DNA from: Bacilli bacterium
Lineage (GTDB): Bacteria > Bacillota_I > Bacilli_A > RF39 > UBA660
Length of the DNA: 64,000 nucleotides
Assembly (NCBI GenBank): GCA_047971315.1
Contig: JBKDZP010000007.1
Location: 7,494 to 71,493 of the forward strand
Reading direction: 5' to 3'
Shown: positions 7,460 to 42,299 of the stretch, in pieces
Numbering within the stretch: position 1 is the first letter of the stretch
How the letters are laid out: each line of letters starts with the position of its first letter
The notes under the pieces: generated by a model
Databases searched by the model: none
What the model was told of the DNA's origin: nothing
The model's input: only the letters and a program-made list of their open reading frames with translations
Program-made: the position numbers and the translations under genes

Positions 7460-8135
7460 TATAATAACTTTATTTCCATCAATGTATAGTGGTTTTCTAA
7501 ATGAGTCTATTATTAAACGAGCAATAAATAAAAATCTAATTTCAATAAATATTCATAATTTAAGAGATTATTCAACAGATAAATTTAATAGAGTTGATGA
7601 TTATCAAATTGGTGGAGGAGCAGGAATGGTAATAATGCCGGAACCAGTATTTAATGCCATTGAAAGTATTAAAACATCTAATTCATTTGTAATTATGCTT
7701 ACACCTCAAGGAGTAAAGTATAATCAAAAAATTGCATATGATTTAAGTGAATATAAACATTTAATTTTATTGTGTGGACACTATGAAGGATTTGATGAAC
7801 GAATACTTAGTATTGTAGACATGGAATTAAGTATTGGAGACTATATCTTAACAGGTGGAGAATTAGCAAGTATGATAGTTACAGATTCAATTGTTAGATT
7901 AGTAGATGGGGTAATTGAAAAAGAATCACACGAAAATGAGACATTTAATAATAATCTTTTAGACTATCCTGTTTATACTAAACCAATTGATTTTAGAGGA
8001 ATAATTGTTCCGGATGTTTTATTATCAGGACATCATGAAAATATAAGAAAATGGCGTTATGAACAAAGTTTTAAAAAAACACAAAAAGTTAGACCTGATC
8101 TATTAGAAATGGGGAATGTTAATGAAAAAAAATAA
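7446..8135 (+). CDS. trmD: tRNA (guanine37-N1)-methyltransferase TrmD
   Basis: MKIDIITLFP start, GGGAGMVIMPEPV and LLCGHYEGFDERI motifs. Overlaps rimM. Confidence 0.9.
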   Translation: MMKIDIITLFPSMYSGFLNESIIKRAINKNLISINIHNLRDYSTDKFNRVDDYQIGGGAGMVIMPEPVFNAIESIKTSNSFVIMLTPQGVKYNQKIAYDLSEYKHLILLCGHYEGFDERILSIVDMELSIGDYILTGGELASMIVTDSIVRLVDGVIEKESHENETFNNNLLDYPVYTKPIDFRGIIVPDVLLSGHHENIRKWRYEQSFKKTQKVRPDLLEMGNVNEKK

Positions 8136-14085: not shown

Positions 14086-14850
14086 ATGCATATATTAGAA
14101 ATTAAAAATTTGTGTGCGAAAATAGAAGATAAAGAAATTTTAAAAGATTTTAATTTAAAAATAAAAAGTGGAGAAATACATGCCATAATGGGTCCTAATG
14201 GAACAGGTAAATCAACCTTATCAAAAGTAATAATGGGGGACTGTAATTATACTGTAACATCTGGAGAAATAACATATGATAATAAAAATATAAATGACTT
14301 AACAGTTGATGAACGAGCAAGACTAGGTATATTTTTAGGGATGCAATTACCAACTGAAATAGAAGGTGTAACAAATGCTGATTTTTTAAGAACAGCACTA
14401 CATAATAAAGAAGGTAAAGATTTTAAATTAATGAATTTTATAAAAGAACTTAATAGTACTTGGGATAAACTAAATATGGATAAAGATATGATTCATAGAT
14501 CTGTAAATAAAGGTTTTTCAGGTGGTGAAAAGAAAAAAAATGAAATAATTCAAATGTATATTCTTAAACCTTCCTTAATTTTATTAGATGAAATTGATTC
14601 TGGATTAGATGTAGACTCATTGAAACTAGTTGGTCAAAATGTAGTTGAATATTTTAATAATTCTGAGAGTGGGATTTTATTAATAACACACTATCAAAGA
14701 CTTCTTGATTATATTAAACCAGATTTTATTCATGTAATGATGAATGGAACAATTATCAAAACAGGTGATATTTCATTAGTTAAAATTATTGAAGAAAAAG
14801 GTTATGAATTTATCAAAGATAATCTAACAAACTGTGAAATTCATGAATAA
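14086..14850 (+). CDS. sufC: Fe-S cluster assembly ATPase SufC
   Basis: Walker A GPNGTGKST, signature FSGGEKKKNEI, Walker B ILLDEIDSGLD. Confidence 0.9.
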   Translation: MHILEIKNLCAKIEDKEILKDFNLKIKSGEIHAIMGPNGTGKSTLSKVIMGDCNYTVTSGEITYDNKNINDLTVDERARLGIFLGMQLPTEIEGVTNADFLRTALHNKEGKDFKLMNFIKELNSTWDKLNMDKDMIHRSVNKGFSGGEKKKNEIIQMYILKPSLILLDEIDSGLDVDSLKLVGQNVVEYFNNSESGILLITHYQRLLDYIKPDFIHVMMNGTIIKTGDISLVKIIEEKGYEFIKDNLTNCEIHE

Positions 14851-15619
14851 AATTGTAGTTAATGAAGATAATAGTTTTGATATTAACTTAGACTCTCAAA
14901 TAATTTTAAAAAAAAATGTAGAAAATGAAATTACTGAATTAAATTTAAAATTTAATGCTGATACTGATTTAGAAATAATATACAATAATAAAGAAAATAA
15001 ATATAATATAATAATAGAAGTTGAAGAAAATGTTACCGCTAAAATATTAGAAATAAGAAGTAGTCAAAAACAAAAAATACAAAATAAGTATTATTTAAAA
15101 AGATATAGTAATTTAGAGGTAATTAAATTTTATGATTGTAGTCAAATAAAAGAAATGGACTTAATTTATTTAGGTGGAGAATATGCAAATATAAATTATA
15201 CTTTAAAAACAATTTCAAAAGAAAAACAAAAATTTGATATAATAGTTTATCATAATTGCTCAAATACAATTAGTAACATATATAATAATGGAGCCAATAT
15301 CAAAGATGGAATTTTAGATTTCAATATAACATCAATTGTAAATAATGGGATTAAGGGGTGCAAACTAAATCAAGATAGTCGTATTCTAATTTTAAATAAT
15401 AATAAATGTAATATTAATCCTAACTTATTAATTGAGGAAAATGATGTAGAAGCAAATCACTCTGCAAGTATTGGAACCTTTAGTAATGAAGTTCTATTTT
15501 ATCTTCAAAGTAGAGGTATTGAATATGAAAAAGCAATAAATCTATTAGTAAGAGGTTTCCTTACTACAAATTTAAATAATGAATTTATAAATCAAATTAT
15601 AAATAAATATTGGAGGTGA
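14834..15619 (+). CDS. SufB/SufD-family Fe-S assembly protein (short, 261 aa)
   Basis: C-terminal region ...EANHSASIGTFSNEVLFYLQSRGIEYEKAINLLVRGFL matches the conserved SufB/D C-terminus. Much shorter than typical SufB or SufD. Confidence 0.65.
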   Translation: MKFMNKIVVNEDNSFDINLDSQIILKKNVENEITELNLKFNADTDLEIIYNNKENKYNIIIEVEENVTAKILEIRSSQKQKIQNKYYLKRYSNLEVIKFYDCSQIKEMDLIYLGGEYANINYTLKTISKEKQKFDIIVYHNCSNTISNIYNNGANIKDGILDFNITSIVNNGIKGCKLNQDSRILILNNNKCNINPNLLIEENDVEANHSASIGTFSNEVLFYLQSRGIEYEKAINLLVRGFLTTNLNNEFINQIINKYWR

Positions 15620-15623
15620 AAAT

Positions 15624-16817
15624 ATGTTTAGAGAAGATTTTCCAATGTTAAATCAGCATATTATATATTTAGATAATGGAGCAACAACATTTAAACCTAA
15701 TGTTGTTATAGGTTCAATAAGTGACTACTATAATAATTATAGTGCAAATGCTCATAGAGGAGACTATGATATAAGTTTAAAAGTAGATGAAAAATTTGAA
15801 AAAACAAGAATAAAAATAAAAGAATTTATTAATTCGAACAGTTCAAAAGAAATAATATTTACTAGTGGAACAACTGATTCATTAAATAAAATAATATTTG
15901 GTTATTTTAAAAATTACCTAAAACAAGGAGATGAAGTTTTAATTACTAAAAGTGAACATGCATCTAATGTCTTACCTTGGTTTGAATTAGCTAATGAACT
16001 TGGTATTATAATTAAATATATTGAATTAGATTCTAAATTAAAAATTAATATAGAAAATGTAGAAAAAGCAATAACAAATAAAACAAAAGTAATTAGTTTA
16101 GCTCATATAACAAATGTAGTTGGTGATATTAGACCAATAAAAGAAATAACAAAATTAGCTCATAAAAGAAATATATTAGTTGTATGTGATGGAGCACAAA
16201 GTGTACCACATTTGAAAATAGATGTCCAAGATCTAGAAATAGATTTTTTAGCATTTTCAGCTCATAAAATGTATGGACCAACTGGTTTAGGAATACTATA
16301 TGGGAAAGAACAACTTTTAGAAAATACCCGACCTATAATATTTGGTGGTGGAATGAACTCTAGCTTTTCAAGTATTGGAGATAAACAATATAAAGAATTA
16401 CCATATCTATTAGAAGCAGGAACTCCAAATATAGCTGGGGTAATTGGATTTGGTAGTGTAATAGATTATCTAGAAAATATTGGAATAAATAAAATAAATG
16501 AACATGAAAAAGAGCTCCACCAATATACATTAAATCAACTAAAAACAGTTCCTGAATTAATAATATATAATGAATTTAGTGAAAGTGGTATAATTGCCTT
16601 TAATTTTAAAAATGTTTTTGCTCAGGATTTAGCAATATATTTAAATAAATATAAAATATGTGTTCGTGCTGGAAATCATTGTGCCAAAATATTAAAAGAA
16701 GAGCTTAATGTCAAAAATACTTGTCGTATTAGTTTAAGTTTATATAATACTAAACAAGAGATAGATTATTTAGTTAAAATATTAAACAATCCAAATTTAA
16801 AAAATGAAATAATTTAA
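15624..16817 (+). CDS. sufS: Cysteine desulfurase SufS
   Basis: GGAGGTG RBS. PLP-lysine motif SAHKMYGPTGLG and active-site Cys in RAGNHCA. Confidence 0.85.
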   Translation: MFREDFPMLNQHIIYLDNGATTFKPNVVIGSISDYYNNYSANAHRGDYDISLKVDEKFEKTRIKIKEFINSNSSKEIIFTSGTTDSLNKIIFGYFKNYLKQGDEVLITKSEHASNVLPWFELANELGIIIKYIELDSKLKINIENVEKAITNKTKVISLAHITNVVGDIRPIKEITKLAHKRNILVVCDGAQSVPHLKIDVQDLEIDFLAFSAHKMYGPTGLGILYGKEQLLENTRPIIFGGGMNSSFSSIGDKQYKELPYLLEAGTPNIAGVIGFGSVIDYLENIGINKINEHEKELHQYTLNQLKTVPELIIYNEFSESGIIAFNFKNVFAQDLAIYLNKYKICVRAGNHCAKILKEELNVKNTCRISLSLYNTKQEIDYLVKILNNPNLKNEII

Positions 16818-16873
16818 GATTGGAAAAAATCAATTTATATGATATAATTTTTAAATGTAAAGGTGTGTGACTT

Positions 16874-17179
16874 ATGGATTTAATTATTTTATTATTACTT
16901 ATGGTAGCAGTTATATTTTTCTTTAGAAATTTTAGAGCTTTCGTATTTTTTTTAGCGAGTATAGAAATTATATTTCATATTTTAACTTATATAAAGTTAC
17001 ATATTGGAGTAGCTGAGGTAACTACATTAATTGATAAATATATACCAGAATCCATATTAGCCATATTGTCACAATATACTAGTGGACTATTCTACGATAT
17101 TTTAGCTTGGTTATTTTTAGCTTGTTTTATCGTATTTGAGATAAATGTAATTAAAATTCTTTTCAAAAAAAAGAAATAA
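16874..17179 (+). CDS. Hypothetical small membrane protein
   Basis: 101 aa with 3 predicted TM helices. Followed by a strong terminator (aattctgaa/ttcagaatt hairpin plus T-run, 17179..17206). Confidence 0.4.
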   Translation: MDLIILLLLMVAVIFFFRNFRAFVFFLASIEIIFHILTYIKLHIGVAEVTTLIDKYIPESILAILSQYTSGLFYDILAWLFLACFIVFEINVIKILFKKKK

Positions 17180-17299
17180 ATTCTGAAATAATTCAGAATT
17201 TTTTTTGTAGTAAATTTAAATATATTGGTAATATTATATAGTAGTTACAAATCGACAAAATAATATGAAAAAAAATGACATAATAAAACAGGTGATAAC

Positions 17300-17713
17300 A
17301 TGAGAAAATATTATTTATTTATAATTAAAAATAATTACTTTAAAAATTATCAAAAAAAACCAAATATAATATATAAAAACTTAGAAAATATATATAAAAT
17401 TAGAAAATATGATTTTCCTTATGGAATAAATCTTTATCATCAATTATGTCAACCATTTGGTTTTAAAATACTTACAAATTATATAAATAATAAATTTGAT
17501 TATAAAAAAATATCTGAGAAAATAATTAAATTAGAATCAAATTTTGAAGTAACTTATATTCAAATTAACTATTCATCAGTAATTATAGTATCTAGTGAAA
17601 ATATGCCAGAAATATTTAAAACACTCTACATTTATAATAAAAATATATTTGTATGTGATTTTATAAATCAAGACTATTTTTGGTTAACAAAACAAATAAA
17701 ACTAATAAAATGA
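17300..17713 (+). CDS. Hypothetical protein
   Basis: 137 aa ORF, no recognisable motifs. Confidence 0.3.
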   Translation: MRKYYLFIIKNNYFKNYQKKPNIIYKNLENIYKIRKYDFPYGINLYHQLCQPFGFKILTNYINNKFDYKKISEKIIKLESNFEVTYIQINYSSVIIVSSENMPEIFKTLYIYNKNIFVCDFINQDYFWLTKQIKLIK

Positions 17714-17760
17714 AATTTTTGTCATCTAATTACATATAATAATTTAGGTAGGGTGAGGTT

Positions 17761-18126
17761 ATGAATAAAATTGATTTATTCAAAGAATTTGTTAAGAGAA
17801 ATCCTCAGCTAATTAAACATGTTAAAGAAGGAAATATGACTTGGCAAAAATATTTTGAAATATTTGACTTATATGGAGAAAATAGTAGTGAATGGAATCA
17901 ATATATAAATAAACAAGATGATTTAAAACAAGTATCTACAAATACATTATCATTTACAGATTTATTAGGTTTTTTTAAAGGCATGAATTTAGATGCGATG
18001 CAAGAGGGATTAAACAGTGTAGGAAGAGTTGTAAGTGTATTACAAGAACTAGGCGGAAAAGAAAATAATAGAGTTGCTAAACCAGAATATAAACCAAGAC
18101 CTTTATATAAACATTTTGAGGATTAA
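17761..18126 (+). CDS. Small conserved hypothetical protein (position matches ylbD/ylbE-like genes upstream of rsmD in Bacilli)
   Basis: 121 aa. Its stop overlaps the start of the next small ORF (taATGa). Assignment is by synteny only. Confidence 0.35.
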   Translation: MNKIDLFKEFVKRNPQLIKHVKEGNMTWQKYFEIFDLYGENSSEWNQYINKQDDLKQVSTNTLSFTDLLGFFKGMNLDAMQEGLNSVGRVVSVLQELGGKENNRVAKPEYKPRPLYKHFED

Positions 18127-18984: not shown

Positions 18985-21057
18985 ATTCAAAAATATCCTT
19001 TTATAAAACAACAAAATTTAAAAGATTGTGGAGCTGCCTCTCTTTGGATGATTGTAAAATACTATAACGGAGACATTAGTATTTCTAAATTAGCTGAAAT
19101 GAGTTATACAAATAAATTTGGGACAAGCGCTTATCATTTAGTTGAAACTCTAAAAAAAATAGGATTTGAATCAGAGGGAATAAAATTAGATTTAAATGAA
19201 TTAAAAAATTATAATCAATTTCCAGTAATTGCTCATACAACAGTTAATAAATACTTTGGACACTTTGTAGTTATTTATAAAATAGATAAAAATAATAACT
19301 TTATAATTGGTGATCCAAGTAGAAAAATAGTTAAAATAAAAAAAGAAGAATTTACTAAAATATATAATGGAATAGTTATAACTGCTAAACCAATTAAAAC
19401 GATTCCTAGATATTCAAAAAATAAATTTGTTCTAAATTATATTTTTAATATAATAATAAATAATAAATTATTTTTTATACTTATATTCATTTTTTCAATT
19501 TTATCAACTATTTTAACTATTTTTATAACATTTTATTTTCAATTTATGATTGATAGTATAACAAATCTACAAATAAATTTAATTAAAATATTTATGATTA
19601 GTTTATTTATACAATTGATAATTCTAATATTTAACTATATTAGAAATGAATTTATTATATTAATCAATAAAAAAATTGATGATAATTTAACTTTTAATGT
19701 TTTTAAAAAGATAATGTTACTTCCTTATCCATATTACAAAAATAGAACAACAGGAGAGGTTATTTCTAGAATAACAGATTTAGTTAAAATAAAAGATTTA
19801 ATAAGTGAAATTTTAATATTTAGTATAATTGATTTTATTTTATCACTACTTTCAGGTATTGTAATATTTAATATAAATCAAAAATTATTCTATTTTTCAT
19901 TAATAATATTAATTGTTCATTTCATACTTATTATTTTATTTAAAATGAAGAAGATAAATAAAATTGAAAAAGTATTAAGAAATAAAGATACAATTAATTC
20001 CATAATGATTGAAAGTATCAATGGGTTTGAAACAATAAAAGGACTAGGTGTTGAAAATATATTTATTAATAAATTTAAAATTAAATTTTTTAATTATACA
20101 AAAGAAATATTTAGTTTAGAAAAATTTCAAAATAAAGAAATATTCATTACAAATTTAATTAGTAATTTAAGCTTTTTGTTAATTATTTTTCTAGGAATTA
20201 TTTTGATAAAAAATAATCAATTATCGATAGGAGAATTAATTACAATTCAATTTCTATTGAATTTATTTTTAGAACCTATAAAAAAAATAATTAATTCAAG
20301 TACTAATATATTTGAAAGTATAGAATCAATAAAAAGAATTGATGAAATATTATTTATAGAAGAAGAAAAAATAGAATTAAGCAGTTTTAATGAAATACAA
20401 ATTAATTGTTTAACCTATAATCAGGGAAATATTAAACCAATTTTAAATAATATATGTCTTTCAATCAATAAATCAAATAAAATAATGCTTATAGGAAAAA
20501 GTGGAAGTGGAAAAAGTACTTTATTAAAAATTTTAAAAGGTTACTATAAAATAGAAGACAATCATGTATTTATTGATAATATTGATATAAATAAAATAAG
20601 TAATGAAAATATAAAAGATAATATTACTTTAGTAGCTGAAAAAGAAATACTATTTACTGATACCATTTATAATAATATTTTAGTTGATAGACAACTAAAT
20701 CAAAACGAATTTCTAGAAATTGTAGATATTTGTGAAATAAATGAAATAACTAAAAACAATAATTTTGGAATAAATATGTTTATAGAAGAAAATGGTTATA
20801 ATTTATCATTGGGAGAAAAAGAGCGCATTATATTAGCTAGAGCTTTAGTAAATAAATTTAAAATATTACTTATTGATGAAGGATTAAGCCAAGTAGATAC
20901 AAATATGGAAAGAAGAATAATAAAAAAACTATTTTCAAAATATAAAGATAAAATAATAATTATAATAACTCACAGAACAGATAATATGGATTTATTTAAT
21001 AAAGTTGTTCGAATAGAAGATGGAAATATCTTAGAAATTTTAAAAAAGGAGGATTAA
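18985..21057 (+). CDS. Bacteriocin-processing ABC transporter with N-terminal C39 peptidase domain
   Basis: The C39 catalytic region QQNLKDCGAASLWMIVKYYNG and His-region FGHFVVIY are present. The Cys lies upstream of the first ATG at 19048. The frame is open from the stop at 18958, and an AGGAGG RBS at 18971..18976 suggests an ATT (18985) or ATA start. TMD with 6 helices. NBD has Walker A GKSGSGKST, signature LSLGEKERI, Walker B ILLIDEGLSQVD. Confidence 0.85.
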   Translation: MQKYPFIKQQNLKDCGAASLWMIVKYYNGDISISKLAEMSYTNKFGTSAYHLVETLKKIGFESEGIKLDLNELKNYNQFPVIAHTTVNKYFGHFVVIYKIDKNNNFIIGDPSRKIVKIKKEEFTKIYNGIVITAKPIKTIPRYSKNKFVLNYIFNIIINNKLFFILIFIFSILSTILTIFITFYFQFMIDSITNLQINLIKIFMISLFIQLIILIFNYIRNEFIILINKKIDDNLTFNVFKKIMLLPYPYYKNRTTGEVISRITDLVKIKDLISEILIFSIIDFILSLLSGIVIFNINQKLFYFSLIILIVHFILIILFKMKKINKIEKVLRNKDTINSIMIESINGFETIKGLGVENIFINKFKIKFFNYTKEIFSLEKFQNKEIFITNLISNLSFLLIIFLGIILIKNNQLSIGELITIQFLLNLFLEPIKKIINSSTNIFESIESIKRIDEILFIEEEKIELSSFNEIQINCLTYNQGNIKPILNNICLSINKSNKIMLIGKSGSGKSTLLKILKGYYKIEDNHVFIDNIDINKISNENIKDNITLVAEKEILFTDTIYNNILVDRQLNQNEFLEIVDICEINEITKNNNFGINMFIEENGYNLSLGEKERIILARALVNKFKILLIDEGLSQVDTNMERRIIKKLFSKYKDKIIIIITHRTDNMDLFNKVVRIEDGNILEILKKED

Positions 21058-22378: not shown

Positions 22379-22427
22379 AACGACACTTTTAATAGTGTTT
22401 TTTTTTTATACTATTAGTGGTGATAAC

Positions 22428-23204
22428 ATGAAAATTTATTTAGACTTTATCTTCATTATTAATTTTTCTTTTGATTTTCTACTTTTAATTGCAGTTGCAA
22501 CATTACTTAAAAGAAATATAAAAATTAAAAAAATTATATTTGGAAGTATATTTGGTGGATTTAGTATATTTACATTGTTTTTAGAAATTAATAATTTAGA
22601 ACTATTTATTTTTAAAATAATAATAAGCATTTTTATGGTTTTAATCACATTCTCATTTAGAAATTTTAAATATACATTAACTAATTTAATATATTTATAT
22701 ATTGTTAGCATGGTTCTTGGAGGATTTTTATATTTCTTAAATATTCAATTTTCGTATTCACATAATGGATTAATATTTTTTCATAATGAATTTAGTATTA
22801 ATATAATAGTTTTAGTCATATTATCACCAATCATTATATATACTTATGTTAAGGAATGTTTAAATTTAAAAACCACCTTTTCAAAATATTATAAAGTGGA
22901 TATCCAGTTAGAAAAAGAAACTCTAAATTTAAATGGATTTTTAGATACTGGAAATAAACTGGTAGATCCAATATTTAAAAAACCAATTATCCTAATAAAT
23001 GAAGAATGTTTAAAATATAAGTATAATTATTTTTTGGTTCCAATTACTACAGTAAGTGAAAACAGTATGTTAAAGTGTATTAAAGTAAAAAAAATCAATA
23101 TAAAAACAGTTGGCGAAAAAAAAGACGTATTAGTTGGTTTACTACCTAAAAAAATACAAATGGAAGGAATTGATTGTATATTACAATCTAAATTGGTAGA
23201 ATAA
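22428..23204 (+). CDS. spoIIGA: Sporulation sigma-E processing aspartic protease SpoIIGA
   Basis: Polytopic N-terminal membrane domain plus C-terminal GFLDTGNKLVDP (DTG aspartic protease motif). Start trimmed to the ATG with GTGGTGA RBS. Immediately upstream of sigE. Confidence 0.75.
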   Translation: MKIYLDFIFIINFSFDFLLLIAVATLLKRNIKIKKIIFGSIFGGFSIFTLFLEINNLELFIFKIIISIFMVLITFSFRNFKYTLTNLIYLYIVSMVLGGFLYFLNIQFSYSHNGLIFFHNEFSINIIVLVILSPIIIYTYVKECLNLKTTFSKYYKVDIQLEKETLNLNGFLDTGNKLVDPIFKKPIILINEECLKYKYNYFLVPITTVSENSMLKCIKVKKINIKTVGEKKDVLVGLLPKKIQMEGIDCILQSKLVE

Positions 23205-23890
23205 TGCTAAAAAAAATATTAAAATTATTATCAAGACTTTATGAAAAAAATATTTTCTTTGTTGGAAGTTCAGATAAATTGCCTGAACCATTAAGTAAAG
23301 AAGATGAAACTGCATATGTATTAAAATCAATGGATGGAGATACTTTTGCTAGAAACAAATTAATAGAACATAATTTAAGATTAGTAGTATTTTTATCAAA
23401 ACGATATGAAAATACTGGAATAGATTTAGAAGATCTTGTAAGTATTGGTACTATTGGACTAATAAAAGGAGTTAATACTTATAAATTAGATAAAAATATA
23501 AAGCTTGCTACTTATGTATCTCGATGTATTGATAATGAAATATTAATGTATTTAAGAAAAAATAAAAAAAGAAGAAGTGAAGTTAGTTTTGAAGATAGTT
23601 TAAGTTATGATTCAGAAGGAAATGAATTACATCTTGAAGATATTTTAGGAACTGATGAAAATATAGTAACAAAAAGAATAGAAGAAGAAACTGAAAAAAA
23701 TATCCTTAAAGAAGAAATTGATAAATTAAATGACAGAGATAAAAAAATAATGATGTTAAGATATGGAATGTTTGGTCAAGAAGAAATGACACAAAAAGAT
23801 GTAGCAATTAAATTAGGCATAAGTCAATCATATATATCTAGAATAGAAAAAAAAGTTATAAAAAAAATAAAAACTTATGTAAAAATATAA
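23204..23890 (+). CDS. sigE: RNA polymerase sporulation sigma factor SigE (pro-sigma-E)
   Basis: Pro-sequence ...FVGSSDKLPEPLSKEDE, region 2 RLVVFLSKRYENTGIDLEDLVSIGTIGLIKGV, region 4 KDVAIKLGISQSYISRIEKK. Start overlaps the spoIIGA stop. Confidence 0.8.
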   Translation: MLKKILKLLSRLYEKNIFFVGSSDKLPEPLSKEDETAYVLKSMDGDTFARNKLIEHNLRLVVFLSKRYENTGIDLEDLVSIGTIGLIKGVNTYKLDKNIKLATYVSRCIDNEILMYLRKNKKRRSEVSFEDSLSYDSEGNELHLEDILGTDENIVTKRIEEETEKNILKEEIDKLNDRDKKIMMLRYGMFGQEEMTQKDVAIKLGISQSYISRIEKKVIKKIKTYVKI

Positions 23891-23937
23891 ATGTATGTAA
23901 ATACATTTTTTAAAATTAATAATTTAGCACTCAACTA

Positions 23938-23966
23938 TTGACAATGCCAAAAGATTGTTGTATAAT
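23938..23966 (+). promoter_or_regulatory. Sigma-A type promoter of the hrcA-grpE-dnaK operon
   Basis: TTGACA (23938..23943), 17 nt spacer, TATAAT (23961..23966). Confidence 0.7.
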
Positions 23967-23970
23967 TTCT

Positions 23971-23997
23971 TTAGCACCAATCAAAATAGAGTGCTAA
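23971..23997 (+). promoter_or_regulatory. CIRCE operator (HrcA binding site)
   Basis: TTAGCACCA-N9-GAGTGCTAA versus consensus TTAGCACTC-N9-GAGTGCTAA. Sits immediately after the -10 and before hrcA. Confidence 0.85.
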
Positions 23998-24008
23998 GAG
24001 GTGGTATT

Positions 24009-25004
24009 GTGATTAGTAATAGACAAAAAGAATTACTAAAACTAATAGTAGAAGAGTATATTAAAACAGCAAAACCAATTAGTTCTAAATCATTATGTAG
24101 AAAGATGTTATGTTCATCAGCTACAATTAGAAATGAAATGAGCAACTTAGAAGAACTTGGAATGTTAGAAAAAACTCATATCTCATCAGGGAGAGTTCCA
24201 AGTGAAAAAGGATATCGTTATTATGTAGATTTAATAATGGAACCTAAAGAATTAACTGGCGAAGATATGCTTAAACTTCAAACCATATTTCATAATCAAT
24301 CATTAGTTTTAACTGATGCAATAAAAAAAAGTATGGAAATTATTTCAGAGTTAACTAATTATACTTCTATAATTTTAGGAAGTTCATCAAAAGATAATAA
24401 AATTAGTAAAATTGAAGTAGTACCCATTAGTGAAAAAGAAATAGTAGCAATAGTTATAACTGATAGAGGACACGTAGAACATAAAAATGTTTTACTTGAA
24501 GAAAAAATAGCAATAAATGAGGTAAAACAAACAGTAGATTTAATCAATAAATTTATTGTAGGTACATCTCTTGATGAAGTTAATGCTAAATTGGAATTTG
24601 AAGTAAAACCTAAAATTGGTGACAATATAAAACATCAAAAAGTAATATATGATGCACTATTTAACTTTTTCAATGATTTTGTAACTGAATCAAACTTTCA
24701 AATTCATAAACCAAGTAATATTTTAATGGAACCAGAATTTAATGATACAAATAAAATTAGAACAATCTTAAAACAATTTGAAGATAAAGAATTTATTAGT
24801 AGTATTAAAGAAGAAGAAAAAGGAATTAATATTTATATTGGTAGTGAAAATAAAATAGATGATGATGTTACAGTAATAAAAACAAAATTCTCTGTTAGTG
24901 GAGAAGAAGGGACAATTGCATTAATAGGACCAAAACGTATGGAATATGATCGCGTTATGACCTTATTACAATTTATTAAAGATAATATTGAAAAAAATGA
25001 TTAA
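24009..25004 (+). CDS. hrcA: Heat-inducible transcription repressor HrcA
   Basis: GTG start after a GAGGTGG RBS; the track ORF extends upstream across the promoter and is unlikely. N-terminal wHTH ISNRQKELLKLIVEEYIKTAKPISSKSL. Confidence 0.85.
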   Translation: MISNRQKELLKLIVEEYIKTAKPISSKSLCRKMLCSSATIRNEMSNLEELGMLEKTHISSGRVPSEKGYRYYVDLIMEPKELTGEDMLKLQTIFHNQSLVLTDAIKKSMEIISELTNYTSIILGSSSKDNKISKIEVVPISEKEIVAIVITDRGHVEHKNVLLEEKIAINEVKQTVDLINKFIVGTSLDEVNAKLEFEVKPKIGDNIKHQKVIYDALFNFFNDFVTESNFQIHKPSNILMEPEFNDTNKIRTILKQFEDKEFISSIKEEEKGINIYIGSENKIDDDVTVIKTKFSVSGEEGTIALIGPKRMEYDRVMTLLQFIKDNIEKND

Positions 25005-25044
25005 AATTAGTGTAATCAACCAATAATTATATGTAGTAGAAAGG

Positions 25045-25665
25045 ATGTTTATGGAAAATTACGAAGAATTAGGAAAATGTGAATGTGAAAATTGTCAAGA
25101 TAATACTTGTGAATGTGATGATTGCAACCATGAAAATGTAGAAAATTGTAATTGTGATGAACATGTTCACTTAAATAGTAATAACCAAAATAAAGAAGTA
25201 GAAAATTTAAAGGAGACAATAAAATCTTTAACTGAACAACTACTTCAAAATGAAGAAAAAAAATTAAGAGATAAAGCAGAAATGATAAACTTTCGTCGCC
25301 GTAAAGATGAAGAAGTTTCTAGAATTATTAAATATTCAAATGAGGATGTTATTAAACAAATTTTACCAACAATAGACAATTTTGAAAGAGCGATTAAATT
25401 AGATGATAAAAACCTAGATGATGAAGTATCTAAATTTTTAGAAGGATTTAAAATGATTTATTGTAATCTAGTTTCTACTATAGAAAGTTTTGAAGTAAAA
25501 GCAATTGATGGTAAAAATAAACCATTTGATCCAACATATCATGAAGCAGTAATGACTGATCATGAAGATGGTGTAGAACCAGGGATAGTATTAGAAGTTT
25601 TACAAAAAGGTTATATATTAAAAGATAGAGTTATTAGACCTGCAATGGTTAAAGTATCTGAATAA
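25045..25665 (+). CDS. grpE: Nucleotide exchange factor GrpE with Cys-rich N-terminal extension
   Basis: Core GrpE (…EKKLRDKAEMINFRRRKDEE…QKGYILKDRVIRPAMVKV). N-terminal 40 aa reads KCECENCQDNTCECDDCNHENVENCNCDEH. Confidence 0.85.
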   Translation: MFMENYEELGKCECENCQDNTCECDDCNHENVENCNCDEHVHLNSNNQNKEVENLKETIKSLTEQLLQNEEKKLRDKAEMINFRRRKDEEVSRIIKYSNEDVIKQILPTIDNFERAIKLDDKNLDDEVSKFLEGFKMIYCNLVSTIESFEVKAIDGKNKPFDPTYHEAVMTDHEDGVEPGIVLEVLQKGYILKDRVIRPAMVKVSE

Positions 25666-25680
25666 AAGAAAGGTGATAAT

Positions 25681-27501
25681 ATGAGTAAAATAATAGGAAT
25701 AGATTTAGGAACAACAAATAGTTGTGTTTCAATTTTTGAAGGTGGAGAAGTAAAAGTAATTGCAAATGCAGAAGGATTAAGAACTACTCCATCAGTTGTA
25801 GCTTTTAAAGGAGAAGACATAATAGTTGGACAAAAAGCTAAAAACCAAATGGTAACAAATAAAAATACAATTCATTCAATAAAAAGACAAATGGGAACAA
25901 ATAAAAAAGTAAATATTGAAGGAAAAGATTATAGTCCTGAAGAAATTTCAGCAATGATTTTAGGAGATTTAAAAAAATCTGCTGAAGCATATTTAGGTGA
26001 AAGTGTAACAAGAGCAGTAATAACTGTTCCAGCGTACTTCAATGATGCTGAAAGACAAGCAACTAAAAATGCTGGTAAAATTGCTGGATTAGAAGTTGAA
26101 AGAATAATAAATGAACCAACAGCTGCTGCACTTGCATATGGTCTTGATAAACAAGATAAGAATGAACAAATCTTAGTATATGATTTAGGTGGGGGAACAT
26201 TTGATGTTTCAATTCTTGAACTAGGAGATGGAGTATTTGAAGTTAAATCAACTAGTGGTAATAATAAATTAGGTGGAGATGACTTTGATGATAGAATAAT
26301 GGATTTCTTAGTTAAAGAATTCAAAAGTGAAAACTCAATTGATTTAAGTAAAGATAAAATGGCAATGCAAAGACTTAAAGATGCTGCTGAAAAAGCTAAA
26401 AAAGATTTAAGTGGAATGAGTTCTACAGAAATATCATTACCATTTATATCTCAAGGATCTGATGGACCACTTCATTTAAATATTACTTTAAGTAGAGCAA
26501 AATTTGAAGATTTAATTCGTGACTTAGTAGAATCTACTAAAGAACCAGTTAGAAAAGCACTATCAGATGCAAAATTAAAACCAGCTGACTTAGATAAAGT
26601 AATTTTAGTCGGTGGGTCTACTAGAATACCTATGGTTCAAGATTTAGTTAAAGCTGAACTTGGTAAAGAACCATCAAAAGGTGTTAATCCAGATGAAGTA
26701 GTTGCAATGGGTGCAGCTATACAAGGTGGAGTATTAACAGGTGATGTTGAAGATATAGTATTATTAGATGTTACACCACTATCACTTGGAATTGAAACTA
26801 TGGGTAATGTAATGACAGTATTAATACCAAGAAATACAACAATTCCAACTAGTAAATCACAAACTTTCTCAACAGCTGCAGATAATCAACCAGCAGTTGA
26901 TATTCACGTATTACAAGGTGAAAGATCTATGGCTTATGATAATAAAACATTAGGTCGTTTCCAACTTACAAATATTCCAGCCGCACCAAGAGGAGTACCT
27001 CAAATCGAAGTTACATTTGATATAGATGCTAATGGTATTGTAAATGTTAAAGCAAAAGACTTAGGAACAGGAAAAGAACAAAACATAACAATTACCTCAA
27101 ATACATCTTTAAGTGATGATGAAATTGAAAAAATGGTAAAAGATGCTGAAGCTAATAGAGAAGCAGATGCTAAGAAAAAAGAAGAAGCAGATTTAAGAAA
27201 TGATGCAGAACAAACAATTTTTCAAACTGAAAAATCATTAAAGGACTTAGGTGATAAAGTAAATGCTGAAGATAAATCAAAAGCAGAAGCTGAAATAAAA
27301 GATTTAAAAGAAGCTTTAGAAAAAGATAATTTAGAAGAAATTAAAATGAAAAAAGAAAAATTAAATGAAACTGCAATAGCATATGCTACTAAAGTGTATG
27401 AAGAAGCAGCAAAAGAAGCCCAAACAAATAATCAAACTGAAGAATCAACTACATCTACAGAAGATGACAATGTAATTGATGCTGAATTTGAAGAAAAATA
27501 A
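25681..27501 (+). CDS. dnaK: Chaperone DnaK (Hsp70)
   Basis: [38 protein letters not shown]. 606 aa. Confidence 0.97.
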
Positions 27502-27510
27502 AATATATTT

Positions 27511-27545
27511 AGAAGTTCTAGGAAACTAGAACTTCGACTTTTATC
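27511..27545 (+). terminator. Rho-independent terminator after dnaK
   Basis: Perfect 10-bp stem gaagttctag/ctagaacttc with gaaa loop, then T-rich tract. Confidence 0.7.
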
Positions 27546-27565: not shown

Positions 27566-29365
27566 ATGGATAAACAAAAAAGAAGAGATGAAATAAGTAA
27601 TGAATATAAATGGGATTTAACTTCAATATTTAAAACAGATGAAGACTATTATTGTATGTTGGAAGTTGTAAAAAAAGATTTAAATTTATTTGATTGTTTC
27701 AAAGAAGATTTACTAACTAGCGCAAAAAGATTATTAGAATATCTTGAAACAAAAATTACTTTTGAAAGAAAATTATATCGATTATATTTTTATGCGCATC
27801 TAAATTTAGATGCTGATACAACTAATACTCAATATCAAAAAATGGATAAAGAAATAACTGATTTAATGTCTAAATTCTCAGAAAATATTTCCTTTGTTAA
27901 TCCACTTTTTATGGAAACAAATTATGAAGTAATTAAAAATTTTTATGAAGAAGAACCAGCACTTAAAAAACATAAATTTAATATTGATAATTTATATAGA
28001 TTTAAAAATCATACTTTAAGTAAAGATGCAGAAAAACTTATTTCTAGTATGAACAAAGTATTCGAAAATCCATCTGAAACCTACAGTATTTTGACTGATA
28101 CTGATCTAAAATTTGATACAATAATAGCTGAAGATGGTAAAGAAGTAGAATTGACTGAATCTAATTATAGAAAATATATTTCATCAATTGATAGAAGTGT
28201 TAGAAAAAATGCTTTTGAGAAATTATTTAAAGTGTATAAAAGTTTTAAAAATACTATTACTTCAATTTATAACGGTGATATTGATTCATCAATAGCTATT
28301 TCTAAAATTAGAAAATATAATAGTTCATTAGAAGCATCATTATATACTGATAATGTTGAAATAAATGTTTATAATAATTTGATTGATACAGTAAATAATA
28401 ACTTATTTGTTTTACATAAATATTTTGAAACAGTAAAAAATGTTTTAAAATTAGATGAGTTACATTTATATGATTTATATGTACCATTAATTAAAGAAGA
28501 TAAAAGTTACTACGAATACGATGAAGCTAGAAAAATAGTAATAAGTGCTTTAAGTATTTTAGGTGAAGATTATATTGAAAACTTAAATAAAGCCTTTGAT
28601 CAAAAATGGATTGACGTTTATAATAATGTTGGGAAAAGAGGCGGAGCTTATTCTAGTGGATTTTATGATACCAATCCTTATATTCTTTTAAATTACGAGG
28701 GAAAACTAAATGATGTTTCCACACTTGCTCATGAACTTGGACATTCGATGCATTCTTATTATTCATGTAAAAATAATGAATATCAAAATTCATCTTATAC
28801 GATATTTGTAGCAGAGGTGGCATCAACTGTAAATGAATTATTACTATGTAAACATTTGCTTAAAGAAAGCAAAGATAAAAATGAAAAATTATCTATTTTA
28901 AATAGATTAATGGAATTATTTAAAAGTACAATCTATAGACAAACAATGTTTGCAGAATTTGAAAAAGGTATATATGAAAAAAGAGAAAATGATGAAGTAT
29001 TAACTCATGAAGTTATCTCAAATTACTACTATGACCTAAATAAAAAATATTTTGGTAGTAATATAGTAGTTGATGAATTAATAAGTTATGAATGGGAAAG
29101 AATTCCTCACTTTTATTACAATTTTTATGTATATAAATATGCAACAGGATTATCTGCAGCTTGTTATATTGTAGAATCAATTATAAATAATAAAGAAAAT
29201 GCATTAGAAAACTATTTAAGTTTTTTAAAAACAGGTGGTAGTGATTATCCAATTGAGGAATTAAAAATTGCTCATGTTGACATGAATGACAAAAAAGTAG
29301 TTGAAAGTGCTATTAAAATGTTTAATGAAACAATAGATGAATTCAACAAATTAAATAATAGTTAG
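27566..29365 (+). CDS. pepF: Oligoendopeptidase F (M3B family)
   Basis: HELGHSMH HExxH zinc motif. ~600 aa M3B architecture. Confidence 0.8.
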
Positions 29366-29379
29366 ATGGTGGAGAAGTT

Positions 29380-30474
29380 ATGAATAAAAAAGATTATTAC
29401 GAAGTGCTTGGAGTTAGCAAAACAGCAACTGATTCTGAAATTAAAAGTGCATTTCGTGGTTTAGCAAAAAAATATCATCCCGATGTTTCAAAAGAATCTG
29501 ATGCGGATGCAAAATTTAAAGAAGCTCAAGAAGCGTATGCTATTTTATCAGATGAATCAAAAAGAAAACAATATGATCAATTTGGGCATTCCGCTTTCAA
29601 TAACAACGGTGGTGGTGGCAATGGTGGTTATGATTTTTCAGGATTTGATTTTTCTGATATATTTGGTGATATATTTGGAAATGGTTTTGGTGGCTTTGGT
29701 TTTGGAGGTTCAAGTAATCGTTCAAGAAAAGGTAGTGATTCATTAATTAGAATGAATCTAACTTTTGAAGAAGCGATATTTGGATGTACTAAAACTATTG
29801 AAATAAATGATAGTAAAACTTGTTCTGATTGTCATGGCGAAGGTGGCTTTGGTAGTAAAACATGTCCTGATTGTCATGGGACAGGGCAAATTAATACTAC
29901 TATTTTAGGTGCCTTTGTTACTCGTAGTACTTGCCCAAAATGTGCTGGAAAAGGAAAAACATTTGAAAGTAAATGTTCAAAATGTAGAGGAACAGGTAAA
30001 ACTAATGAAAGAAAAACTAAAGAAGTAAAAGTACCAGCTGGTGTAGATACAGGAAATAGACTAAGAATATCAGGAGCTGGAGAAGCTGGTCCAAATGGTG
30101 GACCAAATGGAGATGTTTATATTGAATTTAGAGTAAATGAACATCCAATATTTAAAAGAGAAGAAAATGATATTTACTTAATTCTGCCAATTACAATTAC
30201 AGATGCAGTATTAGGAACAAAAAAAGATGTACCTACAATTGATGGAATTGTTAAATTAGCAATACCAGCTGGTAGTAAAACAAACGATAAACATCGTTTA
30301 AAAGGAAAAGGTACAACTGATGTTCAAAATGGAAGAAAAGGAGATATGTATGTTATATTAGACATCCATATTCCTAAAAAAATATCAAAAGAACAAAAAA
30401 AATTGTTTGAACAATTAGATAAAACTAATTTAGAAGATAGCAGTGATTTTGAAAAAATAAACAAATATTTATAG
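29380..30474 (+). CDS. dnaJ: Chaperone DnaJ
   Basis: J-domain with HPD (KYHPDVSK), G/F-rich linker, four CxxCxGxG zinc-finger repeats ([36 protein letters not shown]). Confidence 0.95.
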
Positions 30475-39277: not shown

Positions 39278-40981
39278 ATGAATAATGTAGAAGGTCTAAC
39301 AAAACAAATTTTAAAAGAATCAAAAAAAGAAATTATAGATAAAGTTATTATTTCAATTATAAATAGAGGATTACTACTAGTAATTCCAATTATTTATAGT
39401 ACACTTATTGATCAAACAACCCTAAAAAACTTTGATATAGTTGTATACTATATCATTGCTTTAGCTTTATTTTCAATACTTTACTATATATCTGATGCAA
39501 TAAATATGATAATTTTTAATAAATTGTATAGAAAAATATATCATAAATTTGTAATGAAAGCATATGACAGTACAATGAATAATTCACTATATAGTCTCTC
39601 TAGATTTTCTTTAGGAGAATATTCTAATATTTTAAGAGACGATGTAGTAGTAATGTCAGCATATTTTTCAAATTTCATTATGTGGATGGTTAAATTAGCT
39701 GAATTAATTTTCATCTTTGGATATTTTTTCATCATAAATAAAAACATATTTATTTCTACATTAATAATATTTATATTAATGATAATTTATTTAAAAATAG
39801 GTGGTAAAAAAACTCAGATTTATAATGATGATAGAAAACAAAAATTAGATAAAAATAGTGCAATTGTAATAGAAACATTCAATGGAATAAAAGAAATAAA
39901 AGGATTTTATATTTTTGAACAAATAAAACAAAAAATCGATAAAACTTGTAGTGAATTTCTAAAGTCAGACTCAAAATATAGTAATTATGGTAATAATGCT
40001 AAAAATGTAGTTCTAATTTGGACAGAAATAGTTAGAATAATCCTTGTTGGCTATGGAATTTATCTATTTTCAGTAGGTAAAATGGAATTAGGAGTAATAC
40101 TTCTAATATATACATATTATAGTAAAATACTAGATAATTTCACAATACTTTCAACAATAAGTGTTGAAAGAAAAAATCTAAGAGTATCACAAAATAGATT
40201 TAATAAATTACTAATATATCAAAAAACAAATGAATTAAATTACTATCCAAAAAAAGATTATCAAGGAAGTATAAAATTTGAAGAAGTTTTATATGGTAAT
40301 AAACAAGATCCAATTTTAAACTGTATCTCATTTAAAATACCATCTAATAGTTACACAGTAATTACTGGAAAATTTGGTAGTGGTAAAACTGGAATATTTG
40401 ATTTATTACTTAAACTAAATAGACAACATAACGGTAAAATAACAATTGATGATAATGAAATTGAACTAATTGATGATCTTACATATTATAATTTAATATC
40501 GTCAGTTAGAAAAAGACCAACATTTTTTGATGCAAGTATAATAGAAAATCTTCAAATGGTTGAAAACAATGAAGAAAAAATATTTGAAATATGTAGAATG
40601 CTTAAAATTCATGATGATATATTACGACTTTCGGATGATTATAACACCAACATTAACAGCAAAACAGAAAAAATATCAGATCAACTAAAACATATGTTAG
40701 CAATTTCTAGAGTACTTATAAAAGATTCTAAAATAATGTTATTTGATGAAACAATTAGTGGACTAGATAATGAAAATCAAAAAAATGTTCTAAATATTTT
40801 AAATAATCTTAAAGAAAATCATACTATTATTATAATTACTAGAGAAAAAGAAATAATGAAAAAAGCTGATAAAATAATTGTTGTTGATGAAAATATAATT
40901 GCAGAAGAAGGAACATATAAATCATTAATGAGAAAAAAAGGAATTTATTTCAATTTATTTGGAGTTGATATAGAACTTTAA
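39278..40981 (+). CDS. ABC exporter, fused permease-ATPase (degenerate signature motif)
   Basis: 6-helix TMD plus NBD with Walker A GKFGSGKT and Walker B IMLFDETISGLD. The LSGGQ position reads KISDQ. Confidence 0.75.
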   Translation: MNNVEGLTKQILKESKKEIIDKVIISIINRGLLLVIPIIYSTLIDQTTLKNFDIVVYYIIALALFSILYYISDAINMIIFNKLYRKIYHKFVMKAYDSTMNNSLYSLSRFSLGEYSNILRDDVVVMSAYFSNFIMWMVKLAELIFIFGYFFIINKNIFISTLIIFILMIIYLKIGGKKTQIYNDDRKQKLDKNSAIVIETFNGIKEIKGFYIFEQIKQKIDKTCSEFLKSDSKYSNYGNNAKNVVLIWTEIVRIILVGYGIYLFSVGKMELGVILLIYTYYSKILDNFTILSTISVERKNLRVSQNRFNKLLIYQKTNELNYYPKKDYQGSIKFEEVLYGNKQDPILNCISFKIPSNSYTVITGKFGSGKTGIFDLLLKLNRQHNGKITIDDNEIELIDDLTYYNLISSVRKRPTFFDASIIENLQMVENNEEKIFEICRMLKIHDDILRLSDDYNTNINSKTEKISDQLKHMLAISRVLIKDSKIMLFDETISGLDNENQKNVLNILNNLKENHTIIIITREKEIMKKADKIIVVDENIIAEEGTYKSLMRKKGIYFNLFGVDIEL

Positions 40982-41150: not shown

Positions 41151-42299
41151 ATGGCAGTAGTGTCAATGAATTATTTATTAGAAGCAGGTGTTCACTTTGG
41201 TCATCAAACTAAAAGATGGAACCCAAAAATGAAAGAATATATTTTTACAGCAAGAGATGAAATATATATAATTGATTTACAAAAAACAGCAAAAAAAATC
41301 GAAGAAGCATATGCAGTTTTAAAATCAATAGCTGGAAATGGTGGTAAGGTTCTATTTGTTGGAACTAGAAAACAAGCTAGTGAAGCTATTAAAGAAGAAG
41401 CAATTAGATCAGAATCATTTTATGTAGCTGAAAGATGGTTAGGTGGTACTTTAACAAACTTCAAAACTATCAGAAGAAGAGTAAAAAGATTAGAAGAAAT
41501 TGAAAAAATGGAAAGTGATGGTACATTCGCACTTTTACCTAAAAAAGAAGTAATTGGAATTAAAAAAGAATATGACAAATTAAACAAATTATTATGTGGT
41601 ATTCGTGAAATGTATAAATTACCAGCTGCATTATTTATAGTAGATCCATCAAAAGAAGACATAGCAATCAAAGAAGCAAGAATTTTAAATATTCCAGTAT
41701 TTGGAATAGTAGATACAAATTGTGATCCAGATATGGTTGATTATGTAATTCCAGGAAATGATGATGCAATTCGTGCTGTAAAACTAATTACAGGTGTAAT
41801 GGCAAATGCAATTGTAGAAGCAAATGGTGGAAAAATAGTTGATTATGTAAAAGAAGATGATAAATCAGAAAACATAATGGAAAGAGCAGTAGAAAGCGTA
41901 AGAAGAAAAGAAGATAGACCAAAACGTTTCAATAATAACTTCGATAATAAAAATAACAATAATAAATTCAATTCTAATAGACCAAATAGATACAATGACA
42001 ATAAATCTAATGATAACAGATATAATAATAAACCAAACGACAATAGATTTAATGAAAATAGATCTAATAATAAACCATTTGAAAATAATACAAATGATTA
42101 TAGAAAATCTAATATTAGAGTTGAAAACCAAGAAACTACACCATTAACTATAGTTGTAGAAACTGTTAAAGAAGAAAAAGCACAAACAGTAGATTTTAGT
42201 AAAGCAACAGTTGCTGAACTAAGAGAAATGGCTAAAGTTAAAGATGTTAAAGGATATACAACAATGAAAAAATCTGAGCTTTTAGAAGCTTTAAAATAA
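41151..42299 (+). CDS. rpsB: 30S ribosomal protein S2 with ~145 aa C-terminal extension
   Basis: Canonical S2 core ([19 protein letters not shown]... to ~aa 235). Then an Asn/Arg/Asp-rich degenerate-repeat tail and a terminal [31 protein letters not shown] motif. Confidence 0.9.

Follow-up and report, generated by a model that had tools for sequence, protein, structure and literature searches.

A metallothionein-like, putatively metal-binding N-terminal tail on GrpE in a clade of gut and anaerobic-digester bacteria

The GrpE protein considered here is encoded in a 64,000-nucleotide stretch of DNA from a Bacilli bacterium (GTDB lineage Bacillota_I; Bacilli_A; RF39; UBA660), namely, positions 7,494 to 71,493 of the forward strand of contig JBKDZP010000007.1 in assembly GCA_047971315.1. 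This whole stretch, at its full length, is called the window. Ahead of its conserved core, the protein carries an N-terminal segment that reads MENYEELGKCECENCQDNTCECDDCNHENVENCNCDEHVH and that is rich in cysteine and histidine. On balance, we favor the reading that this segment is a translated, metallothionein-like metal-binding tail that replaces the usual acidic and disordered one, a view argued from its composition and from analogy with known metal-binding tails. Comparable segments occur in a whole clade of bacteria from the gut and from anaerobic digesters, in which the GrpE tail appears to have been swapped for a metallothionein-like or a poly-His/Cys module.

The GrpE tail and its translation

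The grpE gene lies at positions 25051 to 25665 on the plus strand and has 204 codons plus a stop codon; the open reading frame (ORF) to which it belongs spans positions 25045 to 25665. The Pfam family GrpE (PF01025) matches residues 42 to 204 with an E value of 1.2e-47, and with the NCBIfam GrpE equivalog PRK14140 the protein reaches 162.8 bits, above the cutoff of 137. Profile searches against the PDB aligned the core with the solved GrpE structures 4ANI from Geobacillus kaustophilus (residues 49 to 204; E value, 4e-34) and 1DKG from Escherichia coli (residues 50 to 203; E value, 2e-24). By these matches it is a genuine member of the GrpE family, for which nucleotide exchange on DnaK is predicted.

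Eight cysteines and three histidines are concentrated in residues 10 to 40 (C10, C12, C15, C20, C22, C25, C33, C35, H27, H38, and H40; positions 25078 to 25170, plus strand). They are arranged as two CxCxxC units, one CxC, and then HxH, within a peptide from K9 to H40 that is encoded by positions 25075 to 25170. A preliminary description of this DNA had listed these residues one by one, and that listing, with its eight cysteines, is exact; its title for the pattern, "(CxC)4," is loose. Such a cluster is not expected by chance, as cysteine makes up 0.99% of the residues in window ORFs of at least 100 amino acids. The probability of finding at least eight cysteines in 30 residues is 4.4e-10, and approximately 1e-5 such stretches are expected over the whole window. 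The sole other Cys-dense stretch in the window is the zinc finger of DnaJ, with 5 cysteines per 30 residues. Tandem Repeats Finder detected no DNA repeat in the 5' end of the window's own grpE, and the two CxCxxC units are discernible at the protein level only.

An AlphaFold2 model built with 48 homologues showed residues 1 to 42 as coil, with a predicted local distance difference test (pLDDT) score below 50 and no secondary structure. They are followed by the long N-terminal GrpE helix, which pairs in the dimer (residues 46 to 120; positions 25186 to 25410, plus strand). This helix is modeled with a pLDDT of up to about 90 and aligns to 4ANI and 1DKG, the two crystal structures from which the disordered tail at this site is missing. 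In the model, the Cys cluster thus sits where ordinary GrpE proteins carry their disordered tail, just before the long helix. A Pfam scan of the window tail matched no family. When the 45-residue tail alone was compared with 5.8 billion proteins, no candidate shared three 5-residue words with it, a result that is uninformative on other families. A reading of the motif LGKC as part of a lipoprotein or signal peptide was rejected by inspection, since there is no hydrophobic h-region and a lysine occupies position -1. One further cysteine, Cys138 (positions 25462 to 25464, in MIYCNL), lies outside the tail, in the four-helix bundle of the core.

The tail is almost certainly translated and under selection. 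A ribosome-binding site, AAAGGA, is present at positions 25040 to 25045, 5 nucleotides ahead of the likely start codon ATG at 25051, and the identical NCBI protein MFV0249936.1 (204 amino acids, "MAG: Bacilli bacterium," where MAG stands for metagenome-assembled genome) uses the same start. The preliminary description had named a start at a later in-frame Met as a finding that would speak against it. From codon 1 onward, the next in-frame ATG, GTG, or TTG is codon 78, which belongs to the long helix and falls in its invariant KAEMINFRRR segment, and therefore a start there would destroy the conserved GrpE fold. In addition, more than 100 homologues, with tails of 26 to 134 residues, retain the open frame and its Cys/His bias despite insertions and deletions. 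That the Cys-rich codons are instead an untranslated 5' leader with the true start downstream finds a point in its favor in the Shine-Dalgarno-like sequence AAAGGAG within grpE (positions 25209 to 25215), but the only suitably spaced codon after it is ATA (codon 57), so that a downstream start codon was rejected and we consider this reading excluded.

Distribution and variation of the tail in relatives

The preliminary description had treated the tail as a peculiarity of this one gene and had proposed an alignment of GrpE orthologues from related taxa. That comparison was made, and it revealed Cys- and/or His-rich tails throughout a clade. A homologue search gave 6,320 matches, and all of the best 120 that were inspected (57 to 100% identical) carried such a tail, with 4 to 26 cysteines; the best 150 matches of a second large search were inspected as well. 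One of the types, P0025, is very common and was present on 739 contigs. Species-representative genomes were scanned in addition and gave 16 close loci (L001 to L016), all from MAGs with a GC content of 25 to 36% and labeled as Bacilli, Mollicutes, or Tenericutes bacterium or as "Candidatus Faecisoma merdavium" (Mycoplasmatota incertae sedis). Fourteen of these 16 loci encode a Cys- and/or His-rich GrpE tail. In six of them (L007 to L012) the tail has the form (HEHKHEECKCHEH)n, with 19 to 26 histidines and 6 to 8 cysteines, and in one locus it contains 23 cysteines. The two most distant loci, L015 and L016, lack a Cys/His-rich tail. All of the named Bacillales that were compared (Jeotgalicoccus, Paenibacillus, Bacillus subtilis, and others) have no cysteine in the tail. 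Judged from the titles of the records, clade members come from gut and anaerobic-digester samples.

Among representatives of clusters at 50% identity, approximately 20 of the 60 closest have Cys/His-rich tails. The extremes are P0131, with 39 cysteines, and P0125, with 24 histidines and no cysteine, which is a His-only tail. In a neighbor-joining tree of GrpE cores there is one clade of about 40 nonredundant lineages in which all but one have a Cys/His-rich tail. The sole Cys-free member, P0128, has reverted to an acidic tail of the ordinary kind, in which hydrophobic residues occur in pairs. Cys-bearing tails are also found outside the main clade, in P0270, P0178, P0181, P0139, P0146, and P0130/P0133/P0137. 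Of these, P0270 has a minimal CxC-X9-CxC arrangement, and the composition of its tail suggests an organism of higher GC content. These cases point either to separate gains or to a more ancient origin with later losses, of uncertain number. The records of L001, L003, L013, and L014 carry the label "uncultured Muribaculaceae." These bins are probably mislabeled, because their GC content is 27 to 29% and their hrcA-grpE-dnaK operon is of the Firmicute type and 61 to 88% identical to that of the window.

The composition of the tails was measured over the span from the first to the last cysteine in 71 nonredundant sequences. Cysteine accounts for 31% of the residues, aspartate plus glutamate for another 31%, asparagine for 8%, and histidine for 6%, and hydrophobic residues are almost absent. 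Successive cysteines are most often spaced as CxC (47%), followed by CxxxC (17%), CxxC (8%), and CC (7%). Over all sets, the number of cysteines ranges from 4 to 39, with odd and even numbers both present. Apart from the Cys positions, the tails are unalignable, with a mean column identity of 12%. They grow and shrink by in-frame tandem repeats, which in the relatives are of recent origin: the L013 tail contains a 63-bp repeat present 3.7 times (94% identical) and the L012 tail contains a 39-bp repeat present 4.3 times, both lengths being multiples of 3. Across about 250 kb of sequence, made up of the window plus related loci, no coding stretch other than the GrpE tail is genuinely dense in Cys/His.

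It is known that the tail of E. coli GrpE binds the substrate site of DnaK through residues 17-IIM-19, that typical bacterial GrpE tails contain many acidic and two or three hydrophobic residues, and that GrpE tails take an active part in the release of DnaK substrates (PMC12915176). Two or more consecutive hydrophobic residues occur in only 12% of 74 Cys/His-rich tails, compared to 55% of 134 plain tails, and the hydrophobic content (aromatic residues included) is 4.9% in the rich tails versus 14.5% in the plain ones, while the acidic content is equal. Because hydrophobic pairs are scarce and acidity is unchanged, the Cys/His-rich tail looks like a replacement of the pseudo-substrate tail and not an addition to it. 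The tails of the clade thus share with the canonical tail (residues 1 to 33 in E. coli) the position before the long helix, the acidity, and the predicted disorder, but the canonical tail is essentially free of cysteine and usually contains the 2 or 3 consecutive hydrophobic residues. The preliminary description was right that ordinary GrpE tails lack cysteine, as 134 nonredundant plain tails contain 0.1%. Since the hydrophobic pseudo-substrate motif is absent from the window tail, it probably would not displace DnaK clients in the manner of E. coli GrpE.

Metal binding and alternative functions

There is a good likelihood that the tail binds metal in vivo, judging from its composition and from analogy. 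In relatives, cysteine is partly or wholly exchanged for histidine, and because Cys-only, His/Cys, and His-only versions all exist, metal binding and not thiol chemistry would be the property that they have in common. The preliminary description had proposed a metal-binding or redox-sensitive module; the composition and the use of histidine in place of cysteine in relatives fit the first of these, and a redox switch fits less well. Without metal the tail would be disordered, and it would fold around metal ions. Forms with thiolates only would fit Zn(II), Cu(I), or Cd(II), and His-rich forms would fit Ni(II), Zn(II), or Co(II). With 8 cysteines and 3 histidines per chain, the window GrpE could hold about 2 or 3 divalent ions per chain. 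Given the established architecture of GrpE (1DKG and 4ANI), the paired helices of the dimer would place the two tails next to each other, where they could share clusters.

We tentatively propose, with somewhat less than even confidence, that the main role of the tail is buffering, storage, or donation of metal and not switching of GrpE activity. The range of 4 to 39 cysteines, the expansion by repeats, and the existence of a His-only version favor a tail that provides capacity over a switch with a fixed geometry. As grpE is under the control of HrcA and CIRCE, metal capacity would rise with stress. The tail would then serve in the cytosol as a buffer, store, or donor of metal whose amount increases with proteotoxic stress, including stress caused by metals or oxidants.

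The closest functional precedent, by analogy, is HspA, the GroES protein of Helicobacter pylori, whose His/Cys-rich C-terminal tail binds nickel, acts as a store and sequestration site, and is dispensable for viability (PMC3856676). Like GrpE, HspA is an essential, heat-shock-regulated cochaperone with a short terminal His/Cys-rich extension that is dispensable for the fold (PMC3856676), and the (HEHKHEECKCHEH)n tails of the six close loci are very similar to the HspA tail in composition. However, HspA is a GroES and not a GrpE, it carries its tail at the opposite terminus, and it belongs to another phylum, so that the likeness is one of analogy and not of homology. Moreover, the HspA tail binds nickel, whereas the window tail is dominated by thiolates, which suggests Zn, Cu, or Cd. 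With metallothioneins, including those of the bacterial SmtA/BmtA type, the tails share a Cys content of about 30%, the predominance of CxC, the lack of an aromatic or hydrophobic core, disorder in the metal-free state, and duplication of repeats. They are also the only Pfam families to which the tails show even a weak likeness. Metallothioneins differ in being small free-standing proteins, whereas the GrpE tail is attached and much more acidic, and homology between them is unsupported. The zinc finger of DnaJ, with four CxxCxGxG motifs, is likewise a Cys-rich Zn-binding module, and it shares chaperone system and operon with GrpE, but it is rigidly conserved with two defined Zn(Cys)4 centers, whereas the GrpE tail has no CxxCxGxG motif and little CxxC.

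Several points weigh against a metal-binding buffer or store. The case for metal binding is built from sequence composition and analogy, and the metal species cannot be told from the sequence. In a Pfam scan of 68 tails, only metallothionein families matched, and only weakly (best match, Metallothio_5, with an E value of 0.045, 5 members, below threshold), so that no significant match to metallothionein or metal-binding families was obtained; a profile search of the tails against the PDB matched no solved structure. Cells usually contain less GrpE than DnaK or GroES, which makes the capacity of GrpE as a store uncertain. The scan for Cys/His-dense stretches covered the roughly 250 kb around grpE, and similar tails on other proteins may exist elsewhere in these genomes. 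There are also near-invariant Cys columns (C15, C33, and C35), and a tail rarely has fewer than 4 cysteines. These columns could mark a defined site of 4 cysteines such as a switch would have; part of their conservation is an artifact, as aligning Cys-rich low-complexity sequence inflates the signal. Finally, no nickel enzymes or transporters were seen in the 64-kb window, and neither it nor the related loci show nickel enzymes or metal homeostasis genes tied to grpE, with one exception. In the P0025 lineage (L081, positions 15484 to 17845, and also L082 and L083), dnaJ is directly followed by genes for a regulator of the ArsR/SmtB family and for a P1B heavy-metal ATPase, the latter with CxxC in its HMA domain and CPC as a membrane motif. 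This may be a coincidence; the window has miaB and mutL after dnaJ and no such pair.

We place a metal buffer, store, or donor first, followed by a metal or redox switch, a cofactor donor, neutral drift, and the untranslated leader. A switch, the idea put forward in the preliminary description, is unlikely, though it ranks next after the favored reading. A Zn-thiolate center would be oxidized by O2, H2O2, or HOCl, or would lose or gain metal, and the ensuing disulfides or unfolding would alter the interaction between GrpE and DnaK. For example, exchange or substrate release would stop and DnaK would hold its clients during oxidative stress, in the way of Hsp33 and of Cys87 of GrpEL2. The E. 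coli tail contacts the substrate-binding domain of DnaK at the same place (PMC12915176). GrpE-like factors are already known as thermosensors and GrpEL2 as a redox sensor (PMC12987570). The Zn(Cys)4 site of Hsp33 and Cys87 of vertebrate GrpEL2 are cysteines of a chaperone and an exchange factor that could link oxidative stress to activity. As the members of the clade come from the gut and digesters, an anaerobic way of life is probable, and oxygen would then stress them severely. CxC and CxCxxC are present in the tails, and the minimum of about 4 cysteines together with the three near-invariant ones could mark a defined site. In addition, Cys138 of the core is enriched in the clade, as it is found in 74 of 149 GrpE proteins with a Cys/His-rich tail compared to 3 of 170 plain ones.

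The variation of the tail does not fit well with a switch. Switches of the Hsp33 type keep a fixed 4-Cys geometry, and in both Hsp33 and GrpEL2 a few cysteines stand at defined positions, whereas the cysteines of the GrpE tail vary widely in number and spacing, change by tandem repeat, and are odd as well as even in number. One lineage has a His-only tail that is incapable of thiol chemistry. The abundant P0025 lineage has a serine at position 138, so that Cys138 as an obligatory partner ligand is not supported, and this residue may be a mere phylogenetic marker. The Pfam scan of the window GrpE detected no homology to Hsp33.

Less probable than a switch is a metallochaperone or cofactor donor, in which the tail, loaded with metal or an Fe-S cluster and located beside the substrate-binding domain of DnaK, would hand Zn, Ni, or Fe-S to clients as they are released. 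The tail is indeed at the end of GrpE that faces the substrate-binding domain. Mitochondrial GrpE (Mge1) works in the Hsp70-assisted transfer of Fe-S clusters, which counts in favor of a donor. HspA and SlyD are precedents of chaperones whose tails supply nickel for the maturation of hydrogenase (PMC3856676). In the window, SUF genes are clustered 8 kb upstream, and the zinc metallopeptidase gene pepF (M3 family) is embedded in the operon throughout the clade. This support is circumstantial. SUF is not adjacent to grpE, and pepF is also present in the relatives without a Cys tail, L015 and L016, for which reason a link between the tail and the pepF insertion was rejected. Moreover, the canonical ligand spacings of Fe-S proteins (CxxCxxC and CxxxCxxC-Pro) are lacking, and CxC dominates. 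More generally, we consider it rather doubtful that a metal-loaded module gates or equips the DnaK cycle, be it as a metal or oxidant switch or as a tethered donor of Zn, Ni, or Fe-S at the moment of client release. If it did, folding by bacterial Hsp70 would be tied directly to the state of metals or redox.

Neutral expansion of low-complexity sequence, that is, a tolerated repeat without function that drifts in a disordered region in an AT-rich genome, is very improbable. The predicted disorder, the repeat slippage, and the low column identity outside the cysteines are what drift would give. However, cysteine makes up about 1% of these proteomes and yet 20 to 30% of the tails across about 40 lineages whose cores are less than 60% identical. 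Drift at 23% GC should produce runs rich in Asn, Lys, or Ile and not TGT-rich sequence, the alternative forms are rich in histidine, which is the other classic metal ligand, and no other gene in the 250 kb shows such a stretch.

Metal-binding low-complexity tails on chaperones are already known, and what would be new is the presence of such a tail on GrpE. In searchable full texts we found no GrpE with a cysteine-rich, histidine-rich or nickel-binding, metallothionein-like, or metal-binding extension, and a review from 2025 on exchange factors of the GrpE type, which covers thermosensing and a single redox-sensitive cysteine, contains neither the word "zinc" nor the word "metal" (PMC12987570). 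If the tail does bind metal, it would be the first counterpart in the Hsp70 system of the nickel tail of Helicobacter GroES and a candidate for a metal buffer of the cytosol in Firmicutes with small genomes and without a recognizable metallothionein. The clade would then also be a natural experiment on the purpose of the GrpE tail.

The heat-shock operon and other features of the window

The window is very AT rich, with a GC content of 23.5%. The gene grpE is part of a Firmicute-type heat-shock operon in the order promoter, CIRCE, hrcA, grpE, dnaK, (pepF), dnaJ, all on the plus strand. The sigma-70-type promoter (TTGACA-17-TATAAT; positions 23938 to 23966) matches the consensus at 12 of 12 positions and is the best in the scanned region. 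It is followed by a CIRCE operator, TTAGCACCA-N9-GAGTGCTAA (positions 23971 to 23997), which is the predicted HrcA binding site and has 2 mismatches to the consensus, with no match in 100 shuffles. Upstream of it, a second and weaker CIRCE-like element with 3 mismatches (positions 23924 to 23950) overlaps the -35 box. The heat-shock repressor gene hrcA occupies positions 24009 to 25004 and was recognized by Pfam HrcA (PF01628; E value, 1.5e-46) and by the HrcA DNA-binding domain. This order agrees with the preliminary description, which had placed grpE directly downstream of hrcA and CIRCE.

Downstream of grpE, dnaK (positions 25681 to 27501) is an ORF of 606 amino acids with an Hsp70 sequence, and the syntenic gene of L081 matches Pfam HSP70. 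A terminator-like hairpin is present at positions 27512 to 27535, between dnaK and pepF. The pepF-like gene for an M3 oligoendopeptidase (positions 27566 to 29365; Pfam Peptidase_M3, E value of 5.9e-74, plus Peptidase_M3_N) is followed by dnaJ (positions 29380 to 30474), which was identified from the translation of the ORF with its zinc-finger motifs and from a Pfam DnaJ_CXXCXGXG match on the syntenic gene. The order hrcA-grpE-dnaK-pepF-dnaJ is kept in 17 of 17 related loci (L001 to L016 and L081), including the two without a tail, and the pepF insertion is absent from the Bacillales loci that were compared.

Immediately upstream of the hrcA promoter, positions 22395 to 23890 contain spoIIGA and sigE, which are the best NCBIfam matches, both below their trusted cutoffs. 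The same arrangement is found in the common P0025 lineage (L081), whereas the roughly 2.8 kb ahead of hrcA in L001 to L016 showed no sign of it. Since spoIIGA and sigE were detected ahead of the operon in some relatives only, the Cys-tailed GrpE may span sporulating and nonsporulating lineages.

Elsewhere in the window, the SUF Fe-S assembly cluster (positions 14086 to 16817), which is compact, encodes a SufC-like ABC ATPase, a short protein of 261 amino acids with a SufB/D core, and a class V aminotransferase (SufS-like). An ORF of 137 amino acids at positions 17300 to 17713 has no Pfam match. Two ABC exporters, of the kind that serves bacteriocins or type I secretion, are encoded at positions 19048 to 21057 and 39278 to 40981. 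The full length of the first matches a peptide cleavage/export subfamily, with a score below the trusted cutoff. Ribosomal protein S2 (positions 41151 to 42299) has 382 amino acids, and its Ribosomal_S2 domain ends at residue 223. The C-terminal extension of about 150 residues shows a weak Rho_N-like match at its end.

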